Positions 2,434 to 44,757 of a stretch of DNA of 48,303 bases are shown piece after piece. How positions within the stretch are numbered: the stretch's first letter is position 1; each line of letters starts with the position of its first letter. The notes below the pieces were generated by a model that saw nothing but the letters and a program-made list of their open reading frames with translations, was not told the DNA's origin and searched no databases. A program made the translations under genes and the position numbers. Source of the DNA: Patescibacteria group bacterium (GTDB lineage: Bacteria > Patescibacteriota > Patescibacteriia > JACRDY01); the NCBI GenBank assembly GCA_041653535.1, contig JBAZFH010000004.1, positions 73,271-121,573 on the forward strand. Direction: 5' to 3'.

Positions 2434-3054
2434 TTACACCGTTTTATAATTTCTTATTACCGCCCTGACCACGCCCTGAATCAACGGATCTTTGACGTAA
2501 ATCGGGTCCATGTCTTTGTTGGCCGGTTGCAGACGAATCCTGCCGACTTCCCGATAAAATCTTTTTAGTGTGGCATAGGCGTTATCAAGCAGCGCTACTA
2601 CTGTGTCACCGTTGTTAGGGCTAGGATTGCGCTCTACCACTACGTAGTCGCCGTCCAAGATCCCGTCTTCGATCATACTGCTGCCTTTTACCTGCAAGAC
2701 ATAAGAATTTTCTTTATGAAGTACTAAATTTGCCGGAATGGCTATCGGCTCGGGATTAGCTATCGCTTCTATCGGTTCACCGGCAGCAATCAGACCCATC
2801 AAAGGTAAATTAACTATCTCGGTAATATTTATATCATCGCTTTCCACCGAAATCAGCTCTATCGACCTGGCCTCATTAGTCGAACGACGCAGCAAGCCCT
2901 TTTTCTCCAACGCCTCAATATGCTGGGCAACCGTTGCTACTGAAGAAAGCTTAAAATGACTGGCAATTTCACGAAAGCTAGGAGAGTAACTATGGGCAAT
3001 AATAAAATCACGGATGTATTCGATTATTTCTTGTTGTTTTTTGGTGAGACCCAT
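2434..3054 (-). CDS. lexA: LexA repressor (S24 peptidase)
   Basis: N-terminal LexA winged helix (SFREIASHFKLSSVATVAQHIEALEKKGLL). Ala-Gly cleavage site (LIAAGEPI). Catalytic Ser (KGSSM) and Lys (TLKRF). Confidence 0.9.
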   Translation of the reverse strand: MGLTKKQQEIIEYIRDFIIAHSYSPSFREIASHFKLSSVATVAQHIEALEKKGLLRRSTNEARSIELISVESDDINITEIVNLPLMGLIAAGEPIEAIANPEPIAIPANLVLHKENSYVLQVKGSSMIEDGILDGDYVVVERNPSPNNGDTVVALLDNAYATLKRFYREVGRIRLQPANKDMDPIYVKDPLIQGVVRAVIRNYKTV

Positions 3055-3062
3055 ATTGGTAG

Positions 3063-3090
3063 ATGGTAGTTAGTAGTTGGGGGTTAGGGA
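3063..3090 (-). repeat. CTA-rich, G-poor leader segment abutting the lexA ATG (member of the dispersed CTAAC repeat family)
   Basis: Minus-strand reading: CCCTAACCCCCAACTACTAACTACCATCTACCAAT-ATG. No Shine-Dalgarno sequence. Confidence 0.4.
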
Positions 3091-3196
3091 CAGAATCAAC
3101 TTTTGATTTTTAGCGGCTAGCTTTTTTTAAATCGTCTTCGCTCGTGCCAAGACAAATTAGTGGGCCTAATTATTTATTATTTGCTAACCGCCAATC

Positions 3197-3209
3197 ATCA
3201 CCCGGTGAT
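3197..3209. promoter_or_regulatory. 13-bp perfect palindrome ATCACC-C-GGTGAT just downstream of the lexA -10 box
   Basis: Read directly. Starts 11 nt downstream of the lexA -10 box, i.e. at about the predicted TSS. The same ATCACCnGGTGAT core recurs at 39148..39164. Confidence 0.3.
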
Positions 3210-3219
3210 TCATACTTCT

Positions 3220-3247
3220 ATTATACCGAACAAAAACCGAACGTCAA
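3220..3247 (-). promoter_or_regulatory. lexA promoter
   Basis: Minus strand: TTGACG (3247..3242), 16-nt spacer, TATAAT (3225..3220). Confidence 0.6.
3228..3242 (-). promoter_or_regulatory. candidate SOS box, direct repeat GTTC-N7-GTTC inside the lexA promoter spacer
   Basis: Minus strand: TTGAC-GTTC-GGTTTTT-GTTC-GG-TATAAT. Matches the direct-repeat LexA box architecture known from Alphaproteobacteria. Confidence 0.45.
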
Positions 3248-3300
3248 GAATACTTATCCACAACAAAAAATCACCCTTTATTTACTATTTCTTTTTACTA

Positions 3301-4350: not shown

Positions 4351-5892
4351 TTATAAAATTTTGGTTATATCCTCCTTTTCTTCGGGAACGATAATTCGTC
4401 TGCCAATATCACGAAAACGACTTGATTGATCCGCGATAAGCAAACGACGCAAGGCTTGCGCGTTTTCCGCCTCGCCATGAAGCAGCATAACCCGGTTTTT
4501 TTCATCAATATGCTGCCGCAAAAAATCCACCATACCGGGTCCGTCTTCGTGAGCCGAGATGCCAAAAAGCGTCAATACATCGGCTCTGATAATTTTTGAC
4601 TGACCGTAAATCCTTAACCGCGTTCCCTTTTGAGACATGGCGATTTTACGACCGCGAGATTCGCGAACGGAAAATCCGGTCAAAATCACCAAATTACGAG
4701 GATCGTCAATGCCATTCGCCAAATGATGAACAATTCGACCGGCATCACACATGCCGGACGCCGCCATGATAATAACCCGCTGCTTAGCGTTCAACTGCTG
4801 CGACTCGGTTTTATCCAGGGTCTGGGTAATGCCGCCGTTGGTCAAAAAATCCGGATACTGCAACTCCCGCAAATAACCGGCAAGTTGAGAGTAAACGTTG
4901 CTGACTTTAATTGCCAACGGACTGTCCAGATAAATAGGCATCTGCGGTATTACCCCTTCTTCACGCAGCGTATAGAGCATGTAAAGCAGCTCCTGAGTAC
5001 GCTCCAGAGAAAAAGCGGCGATCAGCACCTTGCCGTCACGATCGTGTGTTTGACGAATTTTTTCGATCATTTCTTGTTTTGAGACTTCAAACGACAGGTG
5101 GCGGTCCGCTCCATAAGTCGACTCGGTAACCACCAGATCAGGAAATCTTTCGTCCGACGGCAAGCCCAAGAAATCTTGTCTCGGATAAAGAATCATGTTC
5201 TTTTTCCGTCCGACATCGCCAGTAAACAAGATTGAACGCTTACGACTTCCTTCGCGCCAACGGATAAGAAAAGCCACTGACCCAAGAATATGACCAGTAG
5301 GCAGAAGCTTCAACTCCATGTCGTCGGCCATGCCTTTTAACGGTTTCCACTCATTTGGCGGTCGATCAACCAGTCTCTCTGTCAGCCATTCCACGTCCTG
5401 TTCAGAATAAAGAGGATAAATGGCCTCCGACATGCCTCCGCCCTTGGAATTTTGACGATCGTGCCGCGGCTTGTCTTTTTTGCCTTTACCTCTTAGGTCT
5501 TGGTCTCCGGTCTGTCGGCGAGCCTGATCTAGTTTGCGCCGATGTTTTTCCAGCCACAACGCTTCTTGTTTGGCAATACGGGCTGAATCGATCAACATCA
5601 AGGGCAACAATTCCCGAGTCGGAGAAGAAACAATCACTTGACCATGAAATCCCCTCTTTCGCAGTAGCGGCAAAAGACCGCTGTGGTCGATGTGTGAATG
5701 GGTTACCAACACGTACCTCAAATTCACCTGCAAACGAGCCAGTTGATGAACCAAAGAACTGTTGTGGGTATATGCTTTAGCAACATTACCCTGTTGCGAC
5801 CCCATATCAACCAGTATGCCGCTGCCAGCATGAACCAACAGCGTACAAGAACCAGTTACCTGACCAACCGCGCCTAGCGGGATAACATCCAC
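4351..5892 (-). CDS. metallo-beta-lactamase fold / beta-CASP-type ribonuclease-like protein
   Basis: HSHIDHSG (HxHxDH) motif with the overall MBL plus beta-CASP layout. GTG start 6 nt after AAGGGGG. Contains a basic K/R-rich insert. Confidence 0.75.
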   Translation of the reverse strand: MDVIPLGAVGQVTGSCTLLVHAGSGILVDMGSQQGNVAKAYTHNSSLVHQLARLQVNLRYVLVTHSHIDHSGLLPLLRKRGFHGQVIVSSPTRELLPLMLIDSARIAKQEALWLEKHRRKLDQARRQTGDQDLRGKGKKDKPRHDRQNSKGGGMSEAIYPLYSEQDVEWLTERLVDRPPNEWKPLKGMADDMELKLLPTGHILGSVAFLIRWREGSRKRSILFTGDVGRKKNMILYPRQDFLGLPSDERFPDLVVTESTYGADRHLSFEVSKQEMIEKIRQTHDRDGKVLIAAFSLERTQELLYMLYTLREEGVIPQMPIYLDSPLAIKVSNVYSQLAGYLRELQYPDFLTNGGITQTLDKTESQQLNAKQRVIIMAASGMCDAGRIVHHLANGIDDPRNLVILTGFSVRESRGRKIAMSQKGTRLRIYGQSKIIRADVLTLFGISAHEDGPGMVDFLRQHIDEKNRVMLLHGEAENAQALRRLLIADQSSRFRDIGRRIIVPEEKEDITKIL

Positions 5893-8375: not shown

Positions 8376-8437
8376 AATAAACAGTAGTTAGTCTTTAGTG
8401 GTTAGGCATATTTCTAACATCCTGACTTCCTAACCCC
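8376..8437 (-). repeat. atpD-atpC intercistronic module: purine-rich arm, loop, phased CTA heptamers ending at the atpC ATG
   Basis: Minus strand: GGGGGTTAGGAAGTCAGGATGTTAG-AAATATG-C-CTAACCA-CTAAAGA-CTAACTA-CTGTTTA-TT-ATG. Confidence 0.5.
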
Positions 8438-9876
<1,439 letters not shown>

Positions 9877-9890
9877 TTATTAATTTGTAA

Positions 9891-13320: not shown

Positions 13321-13392
13321 ATTGGGTAGCTAATATTTTTTAACCCCGAAGGACTAGTCTAAAACGACTGATCCTCCGTTCGTCAAAAAGTA

Positions 13393-13632
<240 letters not shown>

Positions 13633-13705
13633 TTAGACTGTTTTTTTGTTTATAGTCCCCTGATGATCATTTAATTATTTCCTAATTAATAATGACTAAC
13701 AGACA

Positions 13706-13745
13706 GTAGTTAGTGGTTAAAAAAATCTAACAACTAAACACTGGC
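13706..13745 (-). repeat. second copy of the hairpin module (after the atpB stop)
   Basis: Plus strand GTAGTTAGTGGTTA-AAAAAAAT-CTAACAACTAAACACT aligns with 9826..9874. Same A7T loop and the same AAACACT tail. Confidence 0.55.
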
Positions 13746-13751
13746 AACTAG

Positions 13752-15085: not shown

Positions 15086-15397
15086 TTGAACGCTTTACTT
15101 AACTATTCAGTAATTTTGGCATTTGTCTTCTTGTCAGCCGGCATGATCATCCAGATCAAGAAAACCTTAAAAAGAAAAACCGCTAAGGATATCTCCTTTT
15201 ACGAGGTGCTGGCAAGACTGCTTGCGACAATGATTTTCAGCGCCAAATATCTCATGGTTTCAGACAAAGCGCTGATCATCGGCAGTTCGATTTTCAACAT
15301 CACCTTTCTTGTATATTTTATAATCATCTGCGTAGTGATGGTACAAGAAAAAAAACCAGCTTTTATAGCCGGTTTTTTATTTTACTTTTTTATTTAA
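15086..15397 (+). CDS. PQ-loop / SemiSWEET-like three-helix membrane protein
   Basis: TTG start 8 nt after AGGAG. 103 aa with 3 TM helices. Helix 1 ends in IQIKKTLKRKTAKDIS, resembling the PQ-loop signature with Pro replaced by Ile. Confidence 0.5.
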   Translation: MNALLNYSVILAFVFLSAGMIIQIKKTLKRKTAKDISFYEVLARLLATMIFSAKYLMVSDKALIIGSSIFNITFLVYFIIICVVMVQEKKPAFIAGFLFYFFI

Positions 15398-16260
15398 ATC
15401 CCAAAAAGCTTTTTTGCATTGGCTGTTGTGGTTCTCGCCACTTCTTCAAAACTCACCGCCCTAACCTCGGCAATTTTTTTTGCAACAAACTCGACATAAA
15501 TCGGTTCGTTACGTTCTCCTCGATGCGGTTCGGGTGCCAAAAAAGGCGCATCGGTTTCCACTAATATTTTTTCCAGCGGTATAATTTTTGCTATCTCCCG
15601 CAATTCCAATGATTTTTTAAAAGTAATAATACCGGTAAAACCAATATAAAAACCAAAATCAATAAACCCTTTTGCTTGGACCAGATTGCCTCCAAAACAA
15701 TGCACTACCCCTTTTAATTTTTTATTTTTTACTTTTAATCTTAAAATTTCTAACAAATCGTCATACGCCCCGTAAACGTCTTTCTTTGTTCCCCGACAAT
15801 GCAAAACCAAGGGCAGATTGAGTTCATCTGCCAAATCAATAAATTTGTTTAAAGTTTCCACTTGAATTTTTTTTATCTTATCAGGATCATCTTTCATTTC
15901 GTCAAAGTAATAATAGTCTAACCCCACTTCTCCTAACGCAACCACCTTATCTGATGATTTCGCCAACTTCCTGTACGTGTCATAATCAAAAACTTCCTGA
16001 CGAGTAACAAATTTATATTCCTTGCCATCAAATTTTGCCGATTCGGTAATATCCTGCGTCAGATGAATCGGATGCAAGCCGACCACCGCATAAACACCTT
16101 TTTGATAATTTTGCGCAATTTTTATAGTGCGCCGCGAGGTTGAAAGCTGCGAACCGATATTAACGAGCCAAGTATTATTAGCCAAAGAACGCCGAATAAC
16201 ATCTTCGGCGTCTTTACTATAAGCGTTAAAATTTACATGACAATGGGAATCAACCAACAT
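15394..16260 (-). CDS. tatD: TatD family metal-dependent hydrolase
   Basis: N-terminal DSHCH motif and overall TatD/YabD pattern. Confidence 0.85.
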   Translation of the reverse strand: MLVDSHCHVNFNAYSKDAEDVIRRSLANNTWLVNIGSQLSTSRRTIKIAQNYQKGVYAVVGLHPIHLTQDITESAKFDGKEYKFVTRQEVFDYDTYRKLAKSSDKVVALGEVGLDYYYFDEMKDDPDKIKKIQVETLNKFIDLADELNLPLVLHCRGTKKDVYGAYDDLLEILRLKVKNKKLKGVVHCFGGNLVQAKGFIDFGFYIGFTGIITFKKSLELREIAKIIPLEKILVETDAPFLAPEPHRGERNEPIYVEFVAKKIAEVRAVSFEEVARTTTANAKKLFGI

Positions 16261-16303: not shown

Positions 16304-16813
16304 TTAAATTACGCTCTTTAACTGCCGTAACAATTCCGGCAAAAGCGGCGCCAAAAATTTAGCCATAGTAACAAACCAAGGAGTAATACTGGAATTTTGC
16401 AACTGTAATGTCAACCATTCATTTATCGGATATCGGGCAATAAAAAATAAAACTAATCCCAAAGTAAAAGCACCTTCTAAAAAACCAAGTAACCCGCCGG
16501 CAAGACGATTGATACCGCTTAAAAAAGGAATAAAAGTGACAAATTCAAACATGCGATCAAAAAAGTAAAATACTAACCCGACTAAACGATTGACAAAAAT
16601 CAAAATAATTACAAAAGATATCACTTTTCCCAAATCACCGTCACCCCAAATAAAAGAGCCCCAGCTGGCTAATCCCAGATAATAATGACCGGCAATAAAA
16701 GCGCCGGCGGCTATGCCGACTAAAGACCCCAAAGCATGAATAAAACCAAACCATAAACCAAAAAGCACGAAACCGCCAAGAAGAATCAATAAAACGAGAT
16801 CAAAAATTGCCAT
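16304..16813 (-). CDS. CvpA family membrane protein
   Basis: Four-helix pattern starting MAIFDLVLLILLGGFVLFG, typical of colicin V production protein homologues. ATG at 16813 (the ORF-track start is TTG). Confidence 0.6.
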   Translation of the reverse strand: MAIFDLVLLILLGGFVLFGLWFGFIHALGSLVGIAAGAFIAGHYYLGLASWGSFIWGDGDLGKVISFVIILIFVNRLVGLVFYFFDRMFEFVTFIPFLSGINRLAGGLLGFLEGAFTLGLVLFFIARYPINEWLTLQLQNSSITPWFVTMAKFLAPLLPELLRQLKSVI

Positions 16814-16844
16814 AAGCAACTTTTTATTAATTATTTTTATTTAT

Positions 16845-16976
16845 TCAAACTGTATAAAAAATAATAATAACGATGATGCAAACCACTGCCAGAATCCCCC
16901 AATACAAAACCGGTCGTTCTTTTTTTTGTTTCTGACGTTCCTCAATATTATATTTTTGAGCAATATTTTGATCCAT
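16845..16976 (-). CDS. unlisted 43-aa ORF, C-terminal TM helix (hypothetical)
   Basis: MDQNIAQKYNIEERQKQKKERPVLYWGILAVVCIIVIIIFYTV*. Fills the rsmI-cvpA gap. Below the ORF-track size cutoff. Confidence 0.3.
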   Translation of the reverse strand: MDQNIAQKYNIEERQKQKKERPVLYWGILAVVCIIVIIIFYTV

Positions 16977-16997
16977 AATAATTTAAAAAATTACGTC

Positions 16998-17675
16998 CTA
17001 TTTTTTACCCTCAATAATAACCGCGAATTCTCCTTTTACTATACCATTTTTCAGCTCTAGTTCAAGCTCCTGCGCCGTTCCGCGGTAAATCGTTTCAAAT
17101 TTTTTGGTCAACTCACGACCGATAACCACTTGCCTGTCAGCGACACCGAAAACAATCAATTCTCCAATCAACTTAATTATGCGATGACAGGATTCATAAA
17201 GAATAATAGTCCTACTACTGGCGATAATTTCCTTTAAAAGAGTCTGCCTGCCTTTTTTGTGCGGCAAAAAACCAAGAAACAAAAACTGGTCGCATGAAAA
17301 TCCCGCCACTGAAGCCAGAACTGCCAACGCCGTCGGACCGGGAATCGGTACGATTTGTACCTGTGAACCAAAACGTTCGATCGCTTTTTTGACTAAATAA
17401 TTTCCCGGATCAGATATTCCCGGCGTACCAGCATCAGAAACTAAAGCAATATTGCTGCCTTCGCGCAGTTTATTTAAGATAAAATCTATTTTTTCTATCT
17501 TACTATGCTGATGATAACTTAATGTTGGTTTTTCCAGATGATAATGTTCCAAAAGTTTTTTGGTTTGTCGAGTGTCTTCGCACAAAATCAAATCAACCCC
17601 TTTCAAAATATCCAATGTCCGCAGGGTAATGTCCGCTAGATTGCCGATAGGGGTGGCGACAATATATAAAAACAT
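16998..17675 (-). CDS. rsmI: 16S rRNA (cytidine1402-2'-O)-methyltransferase
   Basis: VATPIGNLADITLRTLDILKGVDLILCEDTRQT signature. Confidence 0.9.
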   Translation of the reverse strand: MFLYIVATPIGNLADITLRTLDILKGVDLILCEDTRQTKKLLEHYHLEKPTLSYHQHSKIEKIDFILNKLREGSNIALVSDAGTPGISDPGNYLVKKAIERFGSQVQIVPIPGPTALAVLASVAGFSCDQFLFLGFLPHKKGRQTLLKEIIASSRTIILYESCHRIIKLIGELIVFGVADRQVVIGRELTKKFETIYRGTAQELELELKNGIVKGEFAVIIEGKK

Positions 17676-23947: not shown

Positions 23948-24010
23948 ATATATAGCAACTAGCGGCTAAAAGTTAACGGCTAAAACCGCTTTCCCTAGCC
24001 TATTATTTAC

Positions 24011-24172: not shown

Positions 24173-24223
24173 GAAGTCATCCCGCTAACCAGCACTAACC
24201 ATCTTCAACTTCAACTCATAATG

Positions 24224-24253
24224 AAAAAATCCTGCCAAAAGGCAAGATTTTTT
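24224..24253 (-). terminator. rho-independent terminator after the tRNA-Tyr-tailed element
   Basis: Minus strand: AAAAAATCTTGCC-TTTT-GGCAGGATTTTTT. Confidence 0.7.
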
Positions 24254-24257
24254 CATA

Positions 24258-24378
24258 TGGGCCGGGAGGGATTCGTGTCCTGGGCAGCGCTCACCGTTCC
24301 CAGGGTCGCAGTTCGCGACGCTCGTCTGCGTTCGCCCTTGGCGAACTTAACTCGCTTCTGCCCGTGCGAATCTTCCTC
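24258..24378 (-). ncRNA. GC-rich structured RNA candidate ending in a copy of the tRNA-Tyr 3' end (unclassified)
   Basis: GC-rich island in AT-rich DNA. The 20-nt stretch 24256..24275 is identical to 24421..24440: the last 18 nt of tRNA-Tyr (T-loop 3' half plus acceptor 3' strand) plus the 2 bases that follow it. Nested helices GATTCG/CGAATC, GGGCAG/CTGCCC, GTTCGCC/GGCGAAC and GTCGC/GCGAC. Own terminator. No 5' acceptor strand, so it is not a tRNA. Confidence 0.4.
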
Positions 24379-24385
24379 ATCAAAA

Positions 24386-24420
24386 GAAAAAATTGCAAGC
24401 CAAAAGGCTGCAATTTTTTC
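24386..24420 (-). terminator. rho-independent terminator after tRNA-Tyr
   Basis: Minus strand: AAAAAATTGCAGCC-TTTT-GGCTTGCAATTTTTT. Near-duplicate of the 24224..24253 terminator. Confidence 0.7.
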
Positions 24421-38584: not shown

Positions 38585-39013
38585 TTAAGAAGCTGCTTTT
38601 TTATCCCTCTTGGCGCCATAGCGAGAGCGACCGCGTTTGCGACCGGAAACGCCTTGAGTATCATAAACACCGCGAATTACTTTGTAACGAACTCCTGGCA
38701 AATCAGAGGTTCTGCCGGCTTTAACCAGCACGATGCTGTGTTCCTGTAAATTGTGACCTTCACCAGGAATATAAGCGGTAACTTCCATACCGTTAGACAA
38801 ACGAACACGAGCGACTTTTCGTAACGCTGAGTTTGGTTTTTTCGGAGTTCTGGTAAACACTTTTAAACAGACGCCGCGCTTAGCAGGACTACCATTTGGC
38901 AATATGGTTCTTTTACGATGCAAAGTGTCTAACGTAGATTGCATTGCAGCGTATTTAGCTTTTTTCGGCTGAGCTTGTCGGCCGTGACGGATTAGTTGAC
39001 TGATAGTTGGCAT
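38585..39013 (-). CDS. rpsL: 30S ribosomal protein S12
   Basis: [12 protein letters not shown] ... [16 protein letters not shown]. Confidence 0.95.
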
Positions 39014-39147
39014 AATTTAGCTGATATCCAAAGCAACTAGTTACTGCAACCCAAAAAGAAAAACTAGTAGCTTATAATTATTTAAAAAAATACCTTAATT
39101 AAAAGGTAACAATAGAATAGCATTAAGACTTTCGGTAGTCAAGGGAT

Positions 39148-39164
39148 TTATCACCTGGTGATAA
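39148..39164. promoter_or_regulatory. 17-bp perfect palindrome TTATCACC-T-GGTGATAA upstream of the rpsL operon
   Basis: Read directly. Lies 5 nt upstream of a candidate -35 TTGACT (39142..39137, minus strand). Same ATCACCnGGTGAT core as 3197..3209. Confidence 0.3.
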
Positions 39165-39249
39165 TTTTTCTTAAAACCCCAGTATTTTGTAGTTTTACCT
39201 TATTTCCGTCCTCAACTTTATTATCTAATTTTAGACAAATTAATCAAAT

Positions 39250-39480
39250 CTAGACCAATTCCTGTACTCTCCCCACCAGACCATTGGTTAGCCGGACTTT
39301 TATACCCCGCGGATGATGCCTGCCCGGACTCAAAATATCTTTGACAATACCAAACGTCAGTTGACCTGTCGGCTGGTCGGTCTTGAGGACAATCAGCACC
39401 TTGGTCCCGGGGTGTATTTTACTACGGTCTTCGACAGATATGTCCTTTAGAACAACCAATAAACCAGATTCCAGACCCAT
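39250..39480 (-). CDS. YwbE-like small conserved protein
   Basis: VLIVLKTDQPTGQLTFGIVKDILSPGRHHPRGIKVRLTNGLVGRVQELV matches the YwbE family pattern. The start overlaps the upstream gene by 34 nt, so the exact start is uncertain. Confidence 0.6.
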   Translation of the reverse strand: MGLESGLLVVLKDISVEDRSKIHPGTKVLIVLKTDQPTGQLTFGIVKDILSPGRHHPRGIKVRLTNGLVGRVQELV

Positions 39481-40082
39481 TGAAATAAACTGCCAAAAAT
39501 CGAATACCCTGGCAAAAAACTGTCCAATATCACTAAACCGAGCAAAACAAATGGTCCGTTTTTCTCAAAACGATATTTAAACTCGTTGAACCGATCAGGC
39601 AGCGCGGCAAATAAAACTTTAGATCCGTCGAGCGGCGGAATCGGGATAAGGTTGAAAACAAGCAAAACCATATTTACCAAAGAAAGAAACATCAAAAATT
39701 GCAGCAAAAGATTATCCGGAGAAAGATTGGTATAAATCCGTAAAAACTTAAAAGCTAAACCAAAAACAACCAAACTGGCAATATTGGAAAATGGTCCGGC
39801 TAGAGAAATAATAGTCGTCCCCCACTTTTTATTGCGCAAATTATACGGATTATACGGTGCTGGATTACCCCAACCGAAACCGACGAGCAGTAACATAAAA
39901 AAGCCGAGCCAATCAATATGTGCCAGCGGATTTAAAGTAAGCCGACCCATATCCTTGCCAGTACTGTCACCCAAGCCGTAAGCGGCTAAAACGTGAGAAA
40001 ATTCATGAATAGTAATCGCGTAAACCACCGCCATTACCCAAAGCAAAAAAGAAATCGGATCGGAGAACAATAAATTTAGCAT
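39447..40082 (-). CDS. M50 (site-2 protease) family membrane metalloprotease
   Basis: HEFSHVLAA (HExxH) within a TM helix. Multi-pass protein. Confidence 0.75.
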   Translation of the reverse strand: MLNLLFSDPISFLLWVMAVVYAITIHEFSHVLAAYGLGDSTGKDMGRLTLNPLAHIDWLGFFMLLLVGFGWGNPAPYNPYNLRNKKWGTTIISLAGPFSNIASLVVFGLAFKFLRIYTNLSPDNLLLQFLMFLSLVNMVLLVFNLIPIPPLDGSKVLFAALPDRFNEFKYRFEKNGPFVLLGLVILDSFLPGYSIFGSLFQWVWNLVYWLF

Positions 40083-40193
40083 GGGAGTTGATTTATTTTT
40101 TATTTTCTGTTATCCTAATTTTACCTTAATAAATAATTCGAAGCAAGTAACTAGTGGCTAGCAATTAGTAACTAGCGGCCAGAAAAATTCTAG

Positions 40194-40235
40194 CCCCCAG
40201 CTACCAGCTACCAGCTACTATCTACCAGCTACTAT
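40194..40235 (+). repeat. six tandem 7-nt units (CCCCCAG, CTACCAG, CTACCAG, CTACTAT, CTACCAG, CTACTAT) ending 4 nt before the rpmB ATG
   Basis: Read directly. Preceded at 40148..40182 by a purine-richer arm (GTAACTAGTGGCTAGC...ACTAGCGGCCAG) and an A-rich loop. Confidence 0.7.
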
Positions 40236-40239
40236 CCAT

Positions 40240-40431
40240 ATGGCACGAAGATGCGAAATTTGCGGCAAGGGCCCTAAAAAAGCCGCGAGCCGTTCCCACA
40301 GTAAAATCAAAACTTTGCGTAAACAATACCCCAATCTGCAAATCAAAACCGTTGACGGTAAAAGAAAAAAAATTTGCACCACTTGTCTCAAAACCATCAA
40401 CCGTAAAGGTGCTGTGAAAAAAAAGAAATAA
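40240..40431 (+). CDS. rpmB: 50S ribosomal protein L28
   Basis: MARRCEICGKGPKKAASRSHS pattern. Confidence 0.9.
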   Translation: MARRCEICGKGPKKAASRSHSKIKTLRKQYPNLQIKTVDGKRKKICTTCLKTINRKGAVKKKK

Positions 40432-40490: not shown

Positions 40491-41621
40491 TTAAATCTTA
40501 CCGGTCTTTATCTGCTCTTGAATCTTTTTCATCAAATCAAGATAAAATTCCAGATTATTAAGCGTAGCCAGACGCAGAGCCAAAACTTCATTAGTTTTAA
40601 ATAAATGGTGCAAATAAGCCCTAGAATATTCGCGCAACGCAGGGATTTTTGAGTTTTTATTTATTGACCTGAAGTCATTTTTAAACTTAGTATTTTCAAT
40701 ATTTATTGTTTCATAAAACTTGCCGGACAAATTGTTATTTTTCCAAACAAATAACCGACCATGCCGACCTTCGCGAGTTGGTATCACGCAGTCAAACATA
40801 TCTATGCCGGACTTGACCGCCGCTACTATTTCCTCCGGTCGACCTAACCCCATAAGATAACGAGGCTTGTCTAGCGGTAATATCGGAACAGTCCAGCTTA
40901 AAATATCTTTCATCTTTTCTCGCGGTTCACCCACTGCCACCCCGCCAATAGCATAACCGTCAAAATCAAGCGCCTCCAGTTGCTTGGCGCTTTTAATTCG
41001 CAAATCTTTATAAACCGACCCCTGAACTATCCCGAACAACCCCTGCGTTTCTTTATTTTTTCCTTTTAACTTTTTACTTTTTACTTTACTATCAAAATAT
41101 TTTTTACAACGCGTTGCCCACCGAGTAGTCAACTCCAATGATTTCTCGGCATATTTTTTTTCGCACGGATAAGGTGGACATTCATCAAGCACCATTAATA
41201 AATCAACGCCAAGATCGAGCTGAATCTCAACTGCCTTTTCCGGTGTCAGCAAATGTTTTGCGCCACCATCTTCATCAACGCGAAAAATCGCTCCTTGTTC
41301 TGTGATTTTACGAAAATCGGATAATGAAAAAACTTGATAGCCACCACTGTCGGTGAGTATTGGTCCCGACCAATTCATAAACTGATGTAGTCCACCGGCG
41401 TGTTTAATCAACTTATGTCCCGGCTGAATATACAGATGATAAGTGTTAGACAAAATAACATCTGGCGCCAATTCCCTGATCTCTTTGGCTTCCAAGGTTT
41501 TAATTGCCGCCTTGGTCGCAATCGGCATAAAAAATGGCGTTTGTATTTTACCATGCGGTGTGATTATCTCTCCTCGACGGGCTTTAGATTTTTTGCTTGT
41601 TTTAATTAAGGTAAATTTCAT
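40491..41621 (-). CDS. tgt: queuine tRNA-ribosyltransferase
   Basis: Full-length Tgt pattern (TPFFMP, DSGGYQ, GLGRPEE). Confidence 0.95.
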   Translation of the reverse strand: MKFTLIKTSKKSKARRGEIITPHGKIQTPFFMPIATKAAIKTLEAKEIRELAPDVILSNTYHLYIQPGHKLIKHAGGLHQFMNWSGPILTDSGGYQVFSLSDFRKITEQGAIFRVDEDGGAKHLLTPEKAVEIQLDLGVDLLMVLDECPPYPCEKKYAEKSLELTTRWATRCKKYFDSKVKSKKLKGKNKETQGLFGIVQGSVYKDLRIKSAKQLEALDFDGYAIGGVAVGEPREKMKDILSWTVPILPLDKPRYLMGLGRPEEIVAAVKSGIDMFDCVIPTREGRHGRLFVWKNNNLSGKFYETINIENTKFKNDFRSINKNSKIPALREYSRAYLHHLFKTNEVLALRLATLNNLEFYLDLMKKIQEQIKTGKI

Positions 41622-44619: not shown

Positions 44620-44667
44620 CCCCACCTTTATCCACAATTCACCACTTATTTCCATTATACACCACTT
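44620..44667 (-). promoter_or_regulatory. array of five 10-bp phased GTGG-type boxes (candidate MraZ operator)
   Basis: Plus-strand CCAC/CCAT at 44622, 44632, 44642, 44652 and 44662. Minus strand: AAGTGGTG, TAATGGAA, AAGTGGTG, TTGTGGAT, AGGTGGGG. Confidence 0.55.
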
Positions 44668-44682: not shown

Positions 44683-44757
44683 CCACTAAGATTTATCCAC
44701 AAGTTATAACTATTAAAAATTAACGACCGTGACCACTAAAAAATAGGTTAATTAAAC

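Follow-up and report, generated by a model that had tools for sequence, protein, structure and literature searches.

Tandem heptanucleotide arrays adjoining Shine-Dalgarno-less start codons in a patescibacterial ATP synthase-lexA region and its relatives

In the window, by which we mean the whole 48,303-nucleotide stretch of a Patescibacteria group bacterium contig analysed here, four genes (rpmB, atpD, atpC and lexA) are preceded by arrays of 7-nt units which run almost without interruption into the start codon and take the place of a Shine-Dalgarno (SD) site. The first-pass annotation of this DNA had proposed a distinct leader class. That proposal is partly supported: such leaders are real, SD-exclusive, G-depleted and biased in orientation, but the 7-nt CTA phase finds no support as a signal in its own right. 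The explanation we favour, to which we give an even chance, is that these are simple-sequence arrays produced by slippage and then filtered, or co-opted, as SD-independent initiation regions, in which case the 7-nt phase would be a mutational signature.

Heptamer arrays and start codons in the window

Direct reading confirmed the four leader sequences as originally quoted and, together with fold predictions and repeat scans, resolved them into the following elements:

40194..40239, + strand: start-proximal array of rpmB, composed of CCCCCAG, CTACCAG twice, CTACTAT, CTACCAG, CTACTAT and CCAT (direct reading, TRF, lag-7 scan)
40147..40182, + strand: G/U-rich arm upstream of the rpmB array (direct reading, (CTA-N4) motif scan)
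9806..9841, - strand: atpD leader array, three CTAACCA units, CTAATAA, CTATTAT and T, running into the ATG at 9805 (direct reading, TRF, lag scan)
9842..9890, - strand: from the atpG stop towards atpD, the 5' arm TTTAGTGTTTGATAGTTGGTAGTTAG and loop ATTTTTTTA of a spacer-spanning hairpin (fold, loop comparison)
8376..8437, - strand: from the atpD stop to the atpC start, the entire spacer as a single imperfect hairpin, GGGGGTTAGGAAGTCAGGATGTTAG, a loop, then CTAACCA, CTAAAGA, CTAACTA, CTGTTTA and TT (direct reading, fold)
3055..3089, - strand: lexA leader, a 35-nt G-free C/A tract containing CAACTAC, TAACTAC, CATCTAC and CAAT and adjoining the ATG at 3054 (direct reading, TRF period 7)

The six rpmB heptamers occupy positions 40194-40235 and are followed by CCAT and the ATG at 40240 (40194-40242, + strand, with the start codon); TRF reports 5.1 copies of period 7. 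The arm upstream of them is also phased at 7 nt (CTAGTGG, CTAGCAA, TTAGTAA, CTAGCGG), with four UAG triplets spaced 7 nt apart, and includes two copies of GTAACTAGYKGC, a motif observed three times in all for 0.02 expected. The atpD array (9841-9803, - strand, with its ATG) comprises 3.7 perfect copies according to TRF, and the atpC array lies at 8405-8376 on the same strand, or 8405-8373 with the ATG. All four arrays reach the start codon to within 0-4 nt, and in their last ~8 nt the units of array leaders decay to A/T-rich sequence like that of other SD-less leaders. The register of CTA to the ATG varies (-8, -8, -9 and -11 in the four leaders). GGAG, GAGG and AGGA are all absent upstream of the four genes, and these leaders do not have an SD site defined as at least 4 nt of AGGAGG situated 4-18 nt before the start. 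Complementary upstream arms, reported as purine-rich, do exist for rpmB, atpD and atpC, but their composition is G/U-rich. The hairpins are not intrinsic terminators of the type composed of a GC-rich stem and a U tract; they are followed by an ATG and not by a U run. There is a canonical terminator downstream of rpmB.

A chance origin of this pattern is excluded. Four consecutive CTA-N4 units with at most one mismatch occur 12 times in the window for 0.04 expected, and a sliding autocorrelation over lags 3-14 singles out lag 7 as the only period with strong arrays that are not of low complexity. Tandem direct repeats of a 7-nt unit in at least 2-6 copies were found by TRF, by lag scans and by direct reading, TRF identifying period-7 arrays at three of the four leader sites. 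A search of the window against Rfam 15, which includes ribosomal-protein leaders and riboswitches, returned only two tRNAs at the gathering score, with no match at E<=1 over positions 38950-40300 and no rRNA in the window.

Further arrays occur elsewhere in the window, the first two of them away from start codons:

13695..13751, - strand: hairpin belonging to this family, immediately past the atpB stop and ~85 nt before the atpE ATG, thus not start-abutting (motif scan; fold z -2.78)
24181..24220, + strand: CTAACCA-like array CCCGCTAACCAGCACTAACCATCTTCAACTTCAACTCATA, with a terminator hairpin on one side and the rplJ promoter on the other (motif scan, fold)
23948..23985, - strand: rplJ leader phased on UAG/UAA, with TAGCCGT, TAACTTT, TAGCCGC, TAGTTGC and TATATAT followed by the ATG (motif scan)
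15712..15736, - strand: in-frame period-7 array in tatD, encoding a variable loop (TRF, protein alignment with DNA)

The hairpin between atpB and atpE and the atpD element have in common GTTAGATTTTTTTA, ACCACTAAC and the loop GTTAG-ATTTTTTTA. The ATG after the array at 24181-24220 opens an ORF which overlaps two tRNA genes and is probably no real gene. The rplJ leader is predicted to fold no better than its shuffled versions.

How these leaders differ from the remaining ones was assessed in the 118 genes of six loci (the window and relatives) whose spacers measure 35 nt or more, by scoring the last 35 nt for 7-periodicity. An SD-like tetramer precedes 31 of these genes and the last 35 nt are strongly 7-periodic in 16. 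The two features tend to exclude each other, an SD-like tetramer being present in 1 of the 16 array leaders versus 30 of the 102 others (one-sided Fisher p=0.04), and the sole exception is a chance AGGA within a GGACTCA unit. Array leaders contain 8.7% G and 22.5% C compared to 14.7% G and 15.4% C in other SD-less leaders, and G is less frequent than C in 12 of 15 array leaders of the clade (p=0.018). Both the SD exclusivity and the G-poor composition noted at first are supported. The contrast drawn with ordinary GGAGG genes, however, is weaker than claimed because about three genes in four lack an SD site; upstream of most window genes lies A/T-rich sequence containing no SD site and no array.

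Related loci and metagenomic contigs

AtpD places the window in the Patescibacteria near Magasanikbacteria. Its closest relatives are 83-88% identical in this protein, and the collections contain no same-species relative or second strain of the window organism (best AtpD identity 88%). We compared five relative loci with called genes, in which the synteny (atp operon, then lexA) is kept. The spacers between atpG and atpD, between atpD and atpC and in front of lexA again carry arrays or array hairpins in the relatives, and the units are genome-specific:

Window: CTAACCA
Relative L201: GATTTAA/CTTAAAT before atpD; four TACGAAT units before atpC; AGAAATA/TATTTCT after the lexA promoter; AGTCCAG/GGACTCA before dciA
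Relative L204: three to four CTAGCCA units before atpF and atpC; CTAACAG before atpD; CCAGTTA before lexA
Relative L207: AGCCGAT-type hairpins before atpF, atpH and atpC
Relative L208: six ATCTAAA units forming the entire atpG-atpD spacer

That these spacers keep their arrays could be due to a function and not just to tolerance, a point against the explanation we favour. The rpmB array was absent in the only RpmB relatives (68% and 59% identity), in which the M50/rpmB/rpsL synteny is kept and arrays occur at other spacers.

The period is retained while the units change. In eight related loci totalling 167 kb there are 21 segments at lag 7, seven at lag 8, two at lag 10 and at most one at any other non-harmonic lag, and block shuffles give approximately none. 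In a first set of 80 AtpD loci, CPR-like loci contained 19 lag-7 segments in 332 kb and non-CPR loci none in 641 kb. Approximately ten of the 21 arrays of the related loci adjoin a start at a distance of 12 nt or less and the remainder lie elsewhere, including four inside ORFs; arrays are also found just after stop codons and one crosses the atpF ATG. The variable loop of TatD, located between two conserved motifs, is built from heptamers in the window and in three relatives, with a different unit in each of the four genomes, one of which has a perfect array of five AGAATCA units in frame. In three relative lineages, contigs sharing at least 99.9% identity showed no unit-number differences, which indicates that slippage is not fast on that scale.

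A wider view is provided by a metagenome scan for CTAACCACTAACCACTAAC, which retrieved at least 120 contigs with GC contents of 33-69% among the matches listed. One listed contig is betaproteobacterial, and its array adjoins lpxH. Gene calling around these arrays by longest ORF and codon-position GC failed on high-GC contigs, where shadow ORFs appeared on both strands. We used instead a strand-symmetric test, which looks no further than 12 nt from the array end for an ATG that begins an ORF of 100 codons or more. Among the matches listed, such an ORF adjoins the array on the C/A-rich strand in 12 of 69 cases and on the G/T-rich strand in 1 of 65 (p=0.0015), a clear bias in orientation. A complementary G/T arm within 110 nt lies upstream of 15 of 74 CTAACCA arrays and downstream of none of the 74, again among the matches listed. 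As a palindrome is identical on both strands, a G/T arm placed upstream leaves the start-proximal arm G-free whichever way the neighbouring gene points. The G-rich-arm-first order is confined to CTAACCA-type arrays and, for the most part, to the window's own clade. An extension of it to a rule for CPR in general finds no support, an automated survey of heptamer hairpins having given 6 that begin with the G-rich arm, 6 that begin with the C-rich arm and 5 neutral; the same counts tell against a general G-poor rule.

Origin, structure and possible readers of the arrays

Three features point to a mutational origin of the phase: units are replaced wholesale with the period kept, the register to the ATG is not fixed, and arrays occur in frame in tatD. 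For the same reasons, together with the arrays found after stop codons, the 7-nt CTA phase is not retained as a signal. We propose that a 7-nt slippage or expansion process, very active in this patescibacterial lineage and found in other phyla too, would generate arrays and inverted pairs (palindromic units), which would accumulate where they are tolerated, mostly in short intergenic spacers. The phase and the CTA anchor would then be signatures of mutation and not a code being read, and selection would act on the composition of whatever part adjoins the start codon. A G-free array offers no possible ATG, GTG, TTG or SD-like sequence, a simple reason why it could be tolerated or useful right before a start. 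Being C/A-rich and with little structure of its own, it may stand in for the whole upstream region as a landing site that needs no SD pairing and is presumably of the S1 type. In spacers with an inverted G/U-rich arm, the fold would extend from stop to start, and a terminating ribosome or an RNase would presumably be needed to open it. SD exclusivity, G depletion, orientation bias and arm order all fit a constraint from translation initiation, as judged from sequence; the parts of this scheme that we infer are that slippage is the mechanism and that translation benefits at all.

In the window, folding predicts hairpins at rpmB, atpD and atpC that are only modestly better than those of shuffled sequences: pairing of the rpmB array with its arm is weak (z -1.47), the atpG-atpD spacer folds at -19.6 kcal/mol (z -1.46) and the atpD-atpC spacer at -16.3 kcal/mol (z -2.18). 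The lexA tract is predicted to be single-stranded, downstream of a strongly structured 5' UTR (z -3.69). Hairpins of the relatives reach -20 to -55 kcal/mol, with z scores of -5 to -12, and typically extend from the stop codon to 0-10 nt before the next ATG; that many start-proximal arrays are locked in such very stable hairpins is an observation against a simple unstructured landing pad.

Repetitive extragenic palindromes, known as REP, BIME or REPIN, are imperfect palindromes confined to spacers, form multicopy, genome-specific families, can affect mRNA stability, lie mostly 3' of genes and are associated with RAYT transposases. The arrays resemble them as imperfect palindromes in spacers, with genome-specific families, and differ in having arms made of tandem heptamers and in that the link to a RAYT here is limited to an IS200-like gene in one relative. 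The main rival to slippage is accordingly that the elements are REP/REPIN- or MITE-like palindromes with heptamer-array arms, copied between spacers, possibly through gene conversion or the action of a Y1 (RAYT/IS200-type) transposase, and acting at the RNA level as intercistronic hairpins, whether as RNase III-type processing sites, exonuclease barriers, 5' stabilisers or bridges coupling stop to start. We consider this unlikely, though several observations are compatible with it. Two whole spacers of relative L207 are 87% identical over 83 nt, and with the loop common to two window elements this implies that units are copied and not only grown in place; these duplications also argue against slippage alone. 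Palindromic copies number two to three related ones per 20-48 kb and a few unit families dominate each genome. The stop-to-ATG hairpins are far more stable than shuffles, and in four genomes a 5'-terminal hairpin, each time with a differing sequence, comes directly after the lexA promoter. An intercistronic structure is evidently used in this operon, since the atpE-atpF spacer has a conserved stop-proximal hairpin with compensatory change in 10 of 23 pairs; such covariation is the mark that selection on an RNA structure leaves in these genomes.

The heptamer hairpins behave differently in several respects that weigh against the REP-like reading. They are no more stable in the sense than in the antisense orientation, and their sense mismatches are A.C and not G.U, so that selection on RNA pairing itself leaves no visible sign; avoidance of G in the 3' arm explains the A.C mismatches. 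The suggestion of the first-pass annotation that the arm sequesters the array as a switch thus finds no support in strand asymmetry. Arrays abut starts with no inverted partner at lexA in the window, atpD in L208, atpC in L201 and in L206, and a tight hairpin before atpD would oppose the need for more beta than gamma subunit. As for an enzyme, the ten window ORFs scanned against Pfam include no Y1 transposase, and the IS200-like Y1_Tnp gene of relative L206 (28 bits versus a cut-off of 23) is only a lead for REP/RAYT-type copying. Judging by their geometry, the array hairpins may take part in coupling, processing or stabilisation.

A bolder combination of copying and reading seems improbable to us as a whole. 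It would make the elements portable spacers, self-propagating palindromic heptamer-array units copied between genes in Patescibacteria and, patchily, in other SD-poor lineages. In either orientation, each would place a G/U arm near the stop and a G-free arm near the start, giving a stop-to-start hairpin coupling or processing the cistrons and an SD-independent initiation site possibly read by a tandem OB-fold protein (bS1 or Csp) with a 7-nt footprint, so that the period would be functional.

Next among the rivals, after the REP-like element, is a periodic protein-binding platform, that is a dedicated cis-regulatory leader read by a single-stranded RNA-binding protein, in which each heptamer would be bound by one OB-fold or other domain. 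Ribosomes would be recruited or blocked by this reader, for which the candidates would be bS1, a cold-shock-domain protein and a HutP/TRAP-like oligomer that recognises UAG/CUA at 7-nt intervals. The strict 7-nt spacing of CUA in the 3' arm and of UAG in the 5' arm, and the sense-oriented, SD-exclusive placement of the arrays, speak for such a reader, and Csp has been reported to bind heptamer repeats with one protein per unit, S1 and Csp having been proposed for the TAACTGA repeats (PMC4679880). Units that differ wholly among close relatives and among the spacers of one genome would nevertheless demand many co-evolving specificities, the ATG register varies, and arrays also lie in coding loops and after stops. 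A HutP/TRAP-type site, with at least three conserved UAG or GAG triplets at fixed spacing, is not seen across the related loci, the replacement units of the relatives being UAG-free. Overall we hold a periodic reader to be a doubtful explanation of the arrays.

It is very improbable that the arrays are contingency loci in which gain or loss of a 7-nt unit alters leader spacing or structure and switches expression. Moraxella tandem repeats between promoter and start are cited in PMC4679880 as acting in this way, and indels in 7-nt steps have been reported between Cyanothece strains, but the genes concerned here are core housekeeping ones (atp, rpmB, lexA), the arrays are short (3-6 units) and lengths are constant at the 99.9% identity level described above. 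Pairing of the C/A-rich units with some part of the 16S rRNA outside the anti-SD, in the manner of an epsilon-like enhancer, is the least probable reading of all: the arrays are SD-less, next to the ATG and in a single orientation, yet units change between genomes for which, given the similarity of their AtpD, almost identical rRNA is to be expected, and the CTAACCA unit is used across the whole GC range of the metagenomic matches listed, the betaproteobacterium included.

Known heptanucleotide repeats and implications

The first-pass annotation knew of no described element of this type, and here it was mistaken: heptamers adjoining SD-less starts are on record for Beggiatoaceae, cyanobacteria and Bacteroidetes (PMC4679880) as well as for Nostoc (bioRxiv 10.1101/2022.06.06.494920). 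In marine Beggiatoaceae and some cyanobacteria and Bacteroidetes, TAACTGA direct repeats lie mostly a few nucleotides upstream of starts and in one orientation (MacGregor 2015, PMC4679880); SD sites are rare in these spacers, ribosomal-protein genes are included, about 25% of the genes of that genome use an SD site, and S1, Csp or CsrA have been proposed as readers (PMC4679880). For Nostoc and Anabaena, the preprint describes contiguous heptamers near or overlapping start codons (bioRxiv 10.1101/2022.06.06.494920). The present arrays share with TAACTGA the tandem 7-nt repeats in 2-6 copies, ending a few nucleotides before the start, the preferred orientation, the overlap with the expected ribosome-binding site and the rarity of SD, as well as the presence before ribosomal-protein genes in a genome where about one quarter of genes use SD; the function is putative in both cases. 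Unlike TAACTGA, the units here are CTAACCA, CTACCAG and CTACTAT, with several per genome and replacement between close relatives; the arrays often pair with an inverted array to give stop-to-start hairpins, whereas TAACTGA repeats are reported without particular structure, and the host belongs to the Patescibacteria.

Heterocystous cyanobacteria are said to carry the STRR1-3 units CCCCAGT, TTGGTCA and CAACAGT, reportedly described by Mazel et al. in 1990. Cyanobacterial heptamers resemble ours in being intergenic, in having several unit families per genome and in often lying near or overlapping starts or promoters. They differ in unit and phylum, and the parts of that literature available to us do not describe hairpin pairing or an arm-order bias. 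The arrays do not belong to STRR, given their different units and a host that its AtpD relatives identify as patescibacterial. A broader category, which the present arrays match, is that of the long simple sequence repeats or LSSR (Mrazek et al. 2007, as summarised in PMC4679880), in which, according to that summary, heptanucleotides are the commonest long class in many prokaryotes, slippage has been proposed as their source and units whose length is not divisible by three are found mostly outside coding sequence. LSSR is a descriptive label that makes no reference to start codons, to orientation or to the inverted pairing seen here.

Within the E. coli atp operon, an mRNA structure of atpHA, a specific conserved fold, reportedly couples translation (a finding ascribed to Rex et al. 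in 1994). The likeness lies in an atp-operon intercistronic structure masking a downstream start as long as the cistron before it is not translated; the hairpins here are replaced wholesale, and coupling by them would follow from geometry. C/A-rich enhancers that act independently of SD include the CAA-rich, G-free omega leader of TMV, CA multimers and the S1-dependent leader of E. coli rpsA; the effect of these elements has been measured. Our leaders are similarly G-poor, C/A-rich and SD-less right before the start, but those enhancers are not 7-nt periodic and ours are known from sequence. The rpsA leader is also cited in PMC4679880.

The heptanucleotide-repeat phenomenon, with a putative function, is therefore already known and the present arrays are not a wholly new element. 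We found no account of heptamer repeats in CPR in the literature. What is new is the lineage, the multiplicity and turnover of the units, an inverted pairing whose arm order is fixed in CTAACCA-type arrays, the retention of arrays at the same positions and their occurrence in frame.

Essential genes, encoding ATP synthase subunits, ribosomal protein L28 and LexA, have had their whole upstream regions replaced by interchangeable simple repeats, which suggests that initiation at these genes needs little beyond a G-poor sequence in which start codons and SD-like motifs do not occur. Spacers and protein loops alike appear to be shaped by an unusually active process of 7-nt expansion. On the practical side, assemblies of CPR metagenomes break at such arrays, and gene callers are misled by them. 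If the hairpin architecture is functional, it would represent a new way to organise polycistronic expression, and should the arrays prove to be portable spacers, they would constitute a previously unrecognised class of translational spacer.

Heptamer arrays in coding sequence and outside the candidate phyla radiation

The 7-nt tandem repeats are also found within genes. One and the same variable loop of TatD, flanked by GAYDDLLEIL and KGVIHCFGG, is built from in-frame heptamer arrays in four genomes (that of the window and those of the related loci L201, L207 and L208), and the repeated unit is different in each, a perfect (AGAATCA)5 being among them. The tgt ORF (queuine tRNA-ribosyltransferase) also contains an A/T-rich period-7 array, AAAGTAA-like on the sense strand. 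A metagenomic contig from a Sulfuricella-like betaproteobacterium, L081, has a (CTAACCA)n/CTAGCCA array that stops 6 nt short of the start codon of lpxH. The CTAACCA unit is thus also found directly next to start codons well beyond the candidate phyla radiation.

Arrays in coding sequence and upstream of lpxH
Window 15712-15736, minus strand: in-frame array within tatD (15394-16260)
L201 3828-3884; L207 2853-2905; L208 4154-4188: TatD-loop array in relatives
Window 41048-41092: period-7 array in the tgt ORF (40491-41621, minus strand)
L081 343-405: (CTAACCA)n/CTAGCCA array upstream of lpxH

Intercistronic, promoter and leader elements

In the atpE-atpF spacer, a conserved hairpin, UAAUGAUUUUUGAC...GGUUAAAAAUUAUUA, starts at the atpE stop codon. 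Among the six genomes compared, compensatory changes are seen at 10 of its 23 pairs, and the hairpin is probably a genuine RNA element of this intercistronic region.

The lexA promoter region retains TGTGGATAA followed by GTTCGG-N5-GTTCGGTATAAT in four genomes. The former resembles a DnaA box and the latter, a direct repeat, is a possible operator. Two further exact copies of TGTGGATAA lie upstream of mraZ, which brings its total in the window to three against 0.35 expected. The lexA 5′ UTR has a strong predicted fold (z -3.7) and retains a conserved TTAGGCCCA. A gene for a beta-CASP/metallo-beta-lactamase RNase (RNase J/CPSF-like) adjoins the locus and is one of few in the window with a G-rich Shine-Dalgarno-like site (GGGGG) and a GTG start.

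GTAACTAGYKGC also occurs three times (0.02 expected), always on the sense strand and in ribosomal-protein leaders (rpmB twice, rpsL once). The rpsL leaders of the loci L209 and L212 lack it; a related motif, CGCTAGTTGC, is present in the rplJ leader of the window. Between tRNA-Tyr and the rplJ promoter lies a GC-rich stretch of ~150 nt with a terminator-like hairpin on each side. It has no credible match in Rfam; possible identities are a small RNA or the remnant of a gene.

Elements of the window
13321-13392, minus strand: atpE-atpF spacer hairpin (also in the spacer of L201, L204, L206, L207 and L208)
3215-3265, minus strand: lexA promoter
3100-3215, minus strand: lexA 5′ UTR
44628-44636 and 44693-44701, minus strand: TGTGGATAA upstream of mraZ
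4351-5892, minus strand: beta-CASP RNase gene
39033-39044, minus strand; 40147-40158 and 40168-40179, plus strand: GTAACTAGYKGC
About 24250-24400, minus strand: GC-rich stretch

Array hairpins, inserts and a Y1 domain in relatives

L207 carries hairpins made of period-10 (CACAGATTAA) and period-8 (ATGGTTAT/CCATAAAA) arrays, and its atpF start codon is overrun by a GCTATCC-type heptamer array extending into the coding sequence. Two relatives have a broken atp operon: one or two small opposite-strand ORFs with Shine-Dalgarno sites separate atpG from atpD, and array hairpins are present at the flanks of the insert.

Arrays and inserts in relatives
L207 550-617, 2268-2343, 5174-5270 and 5668-5705: period-10 and period-8 array hairpins and the atpF-crossing heptamer array
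L204 9147-10000; L207 9369-10000: atpG-atpD insert

Another relative, L206, is rich in array hairpins and includes an IS200-like Y1 transposase domain (16551-17141; PF01797 at 28 bits, cut-off 23). This domain provides a lead towards RAYT-type mobilisation of palindromic units.
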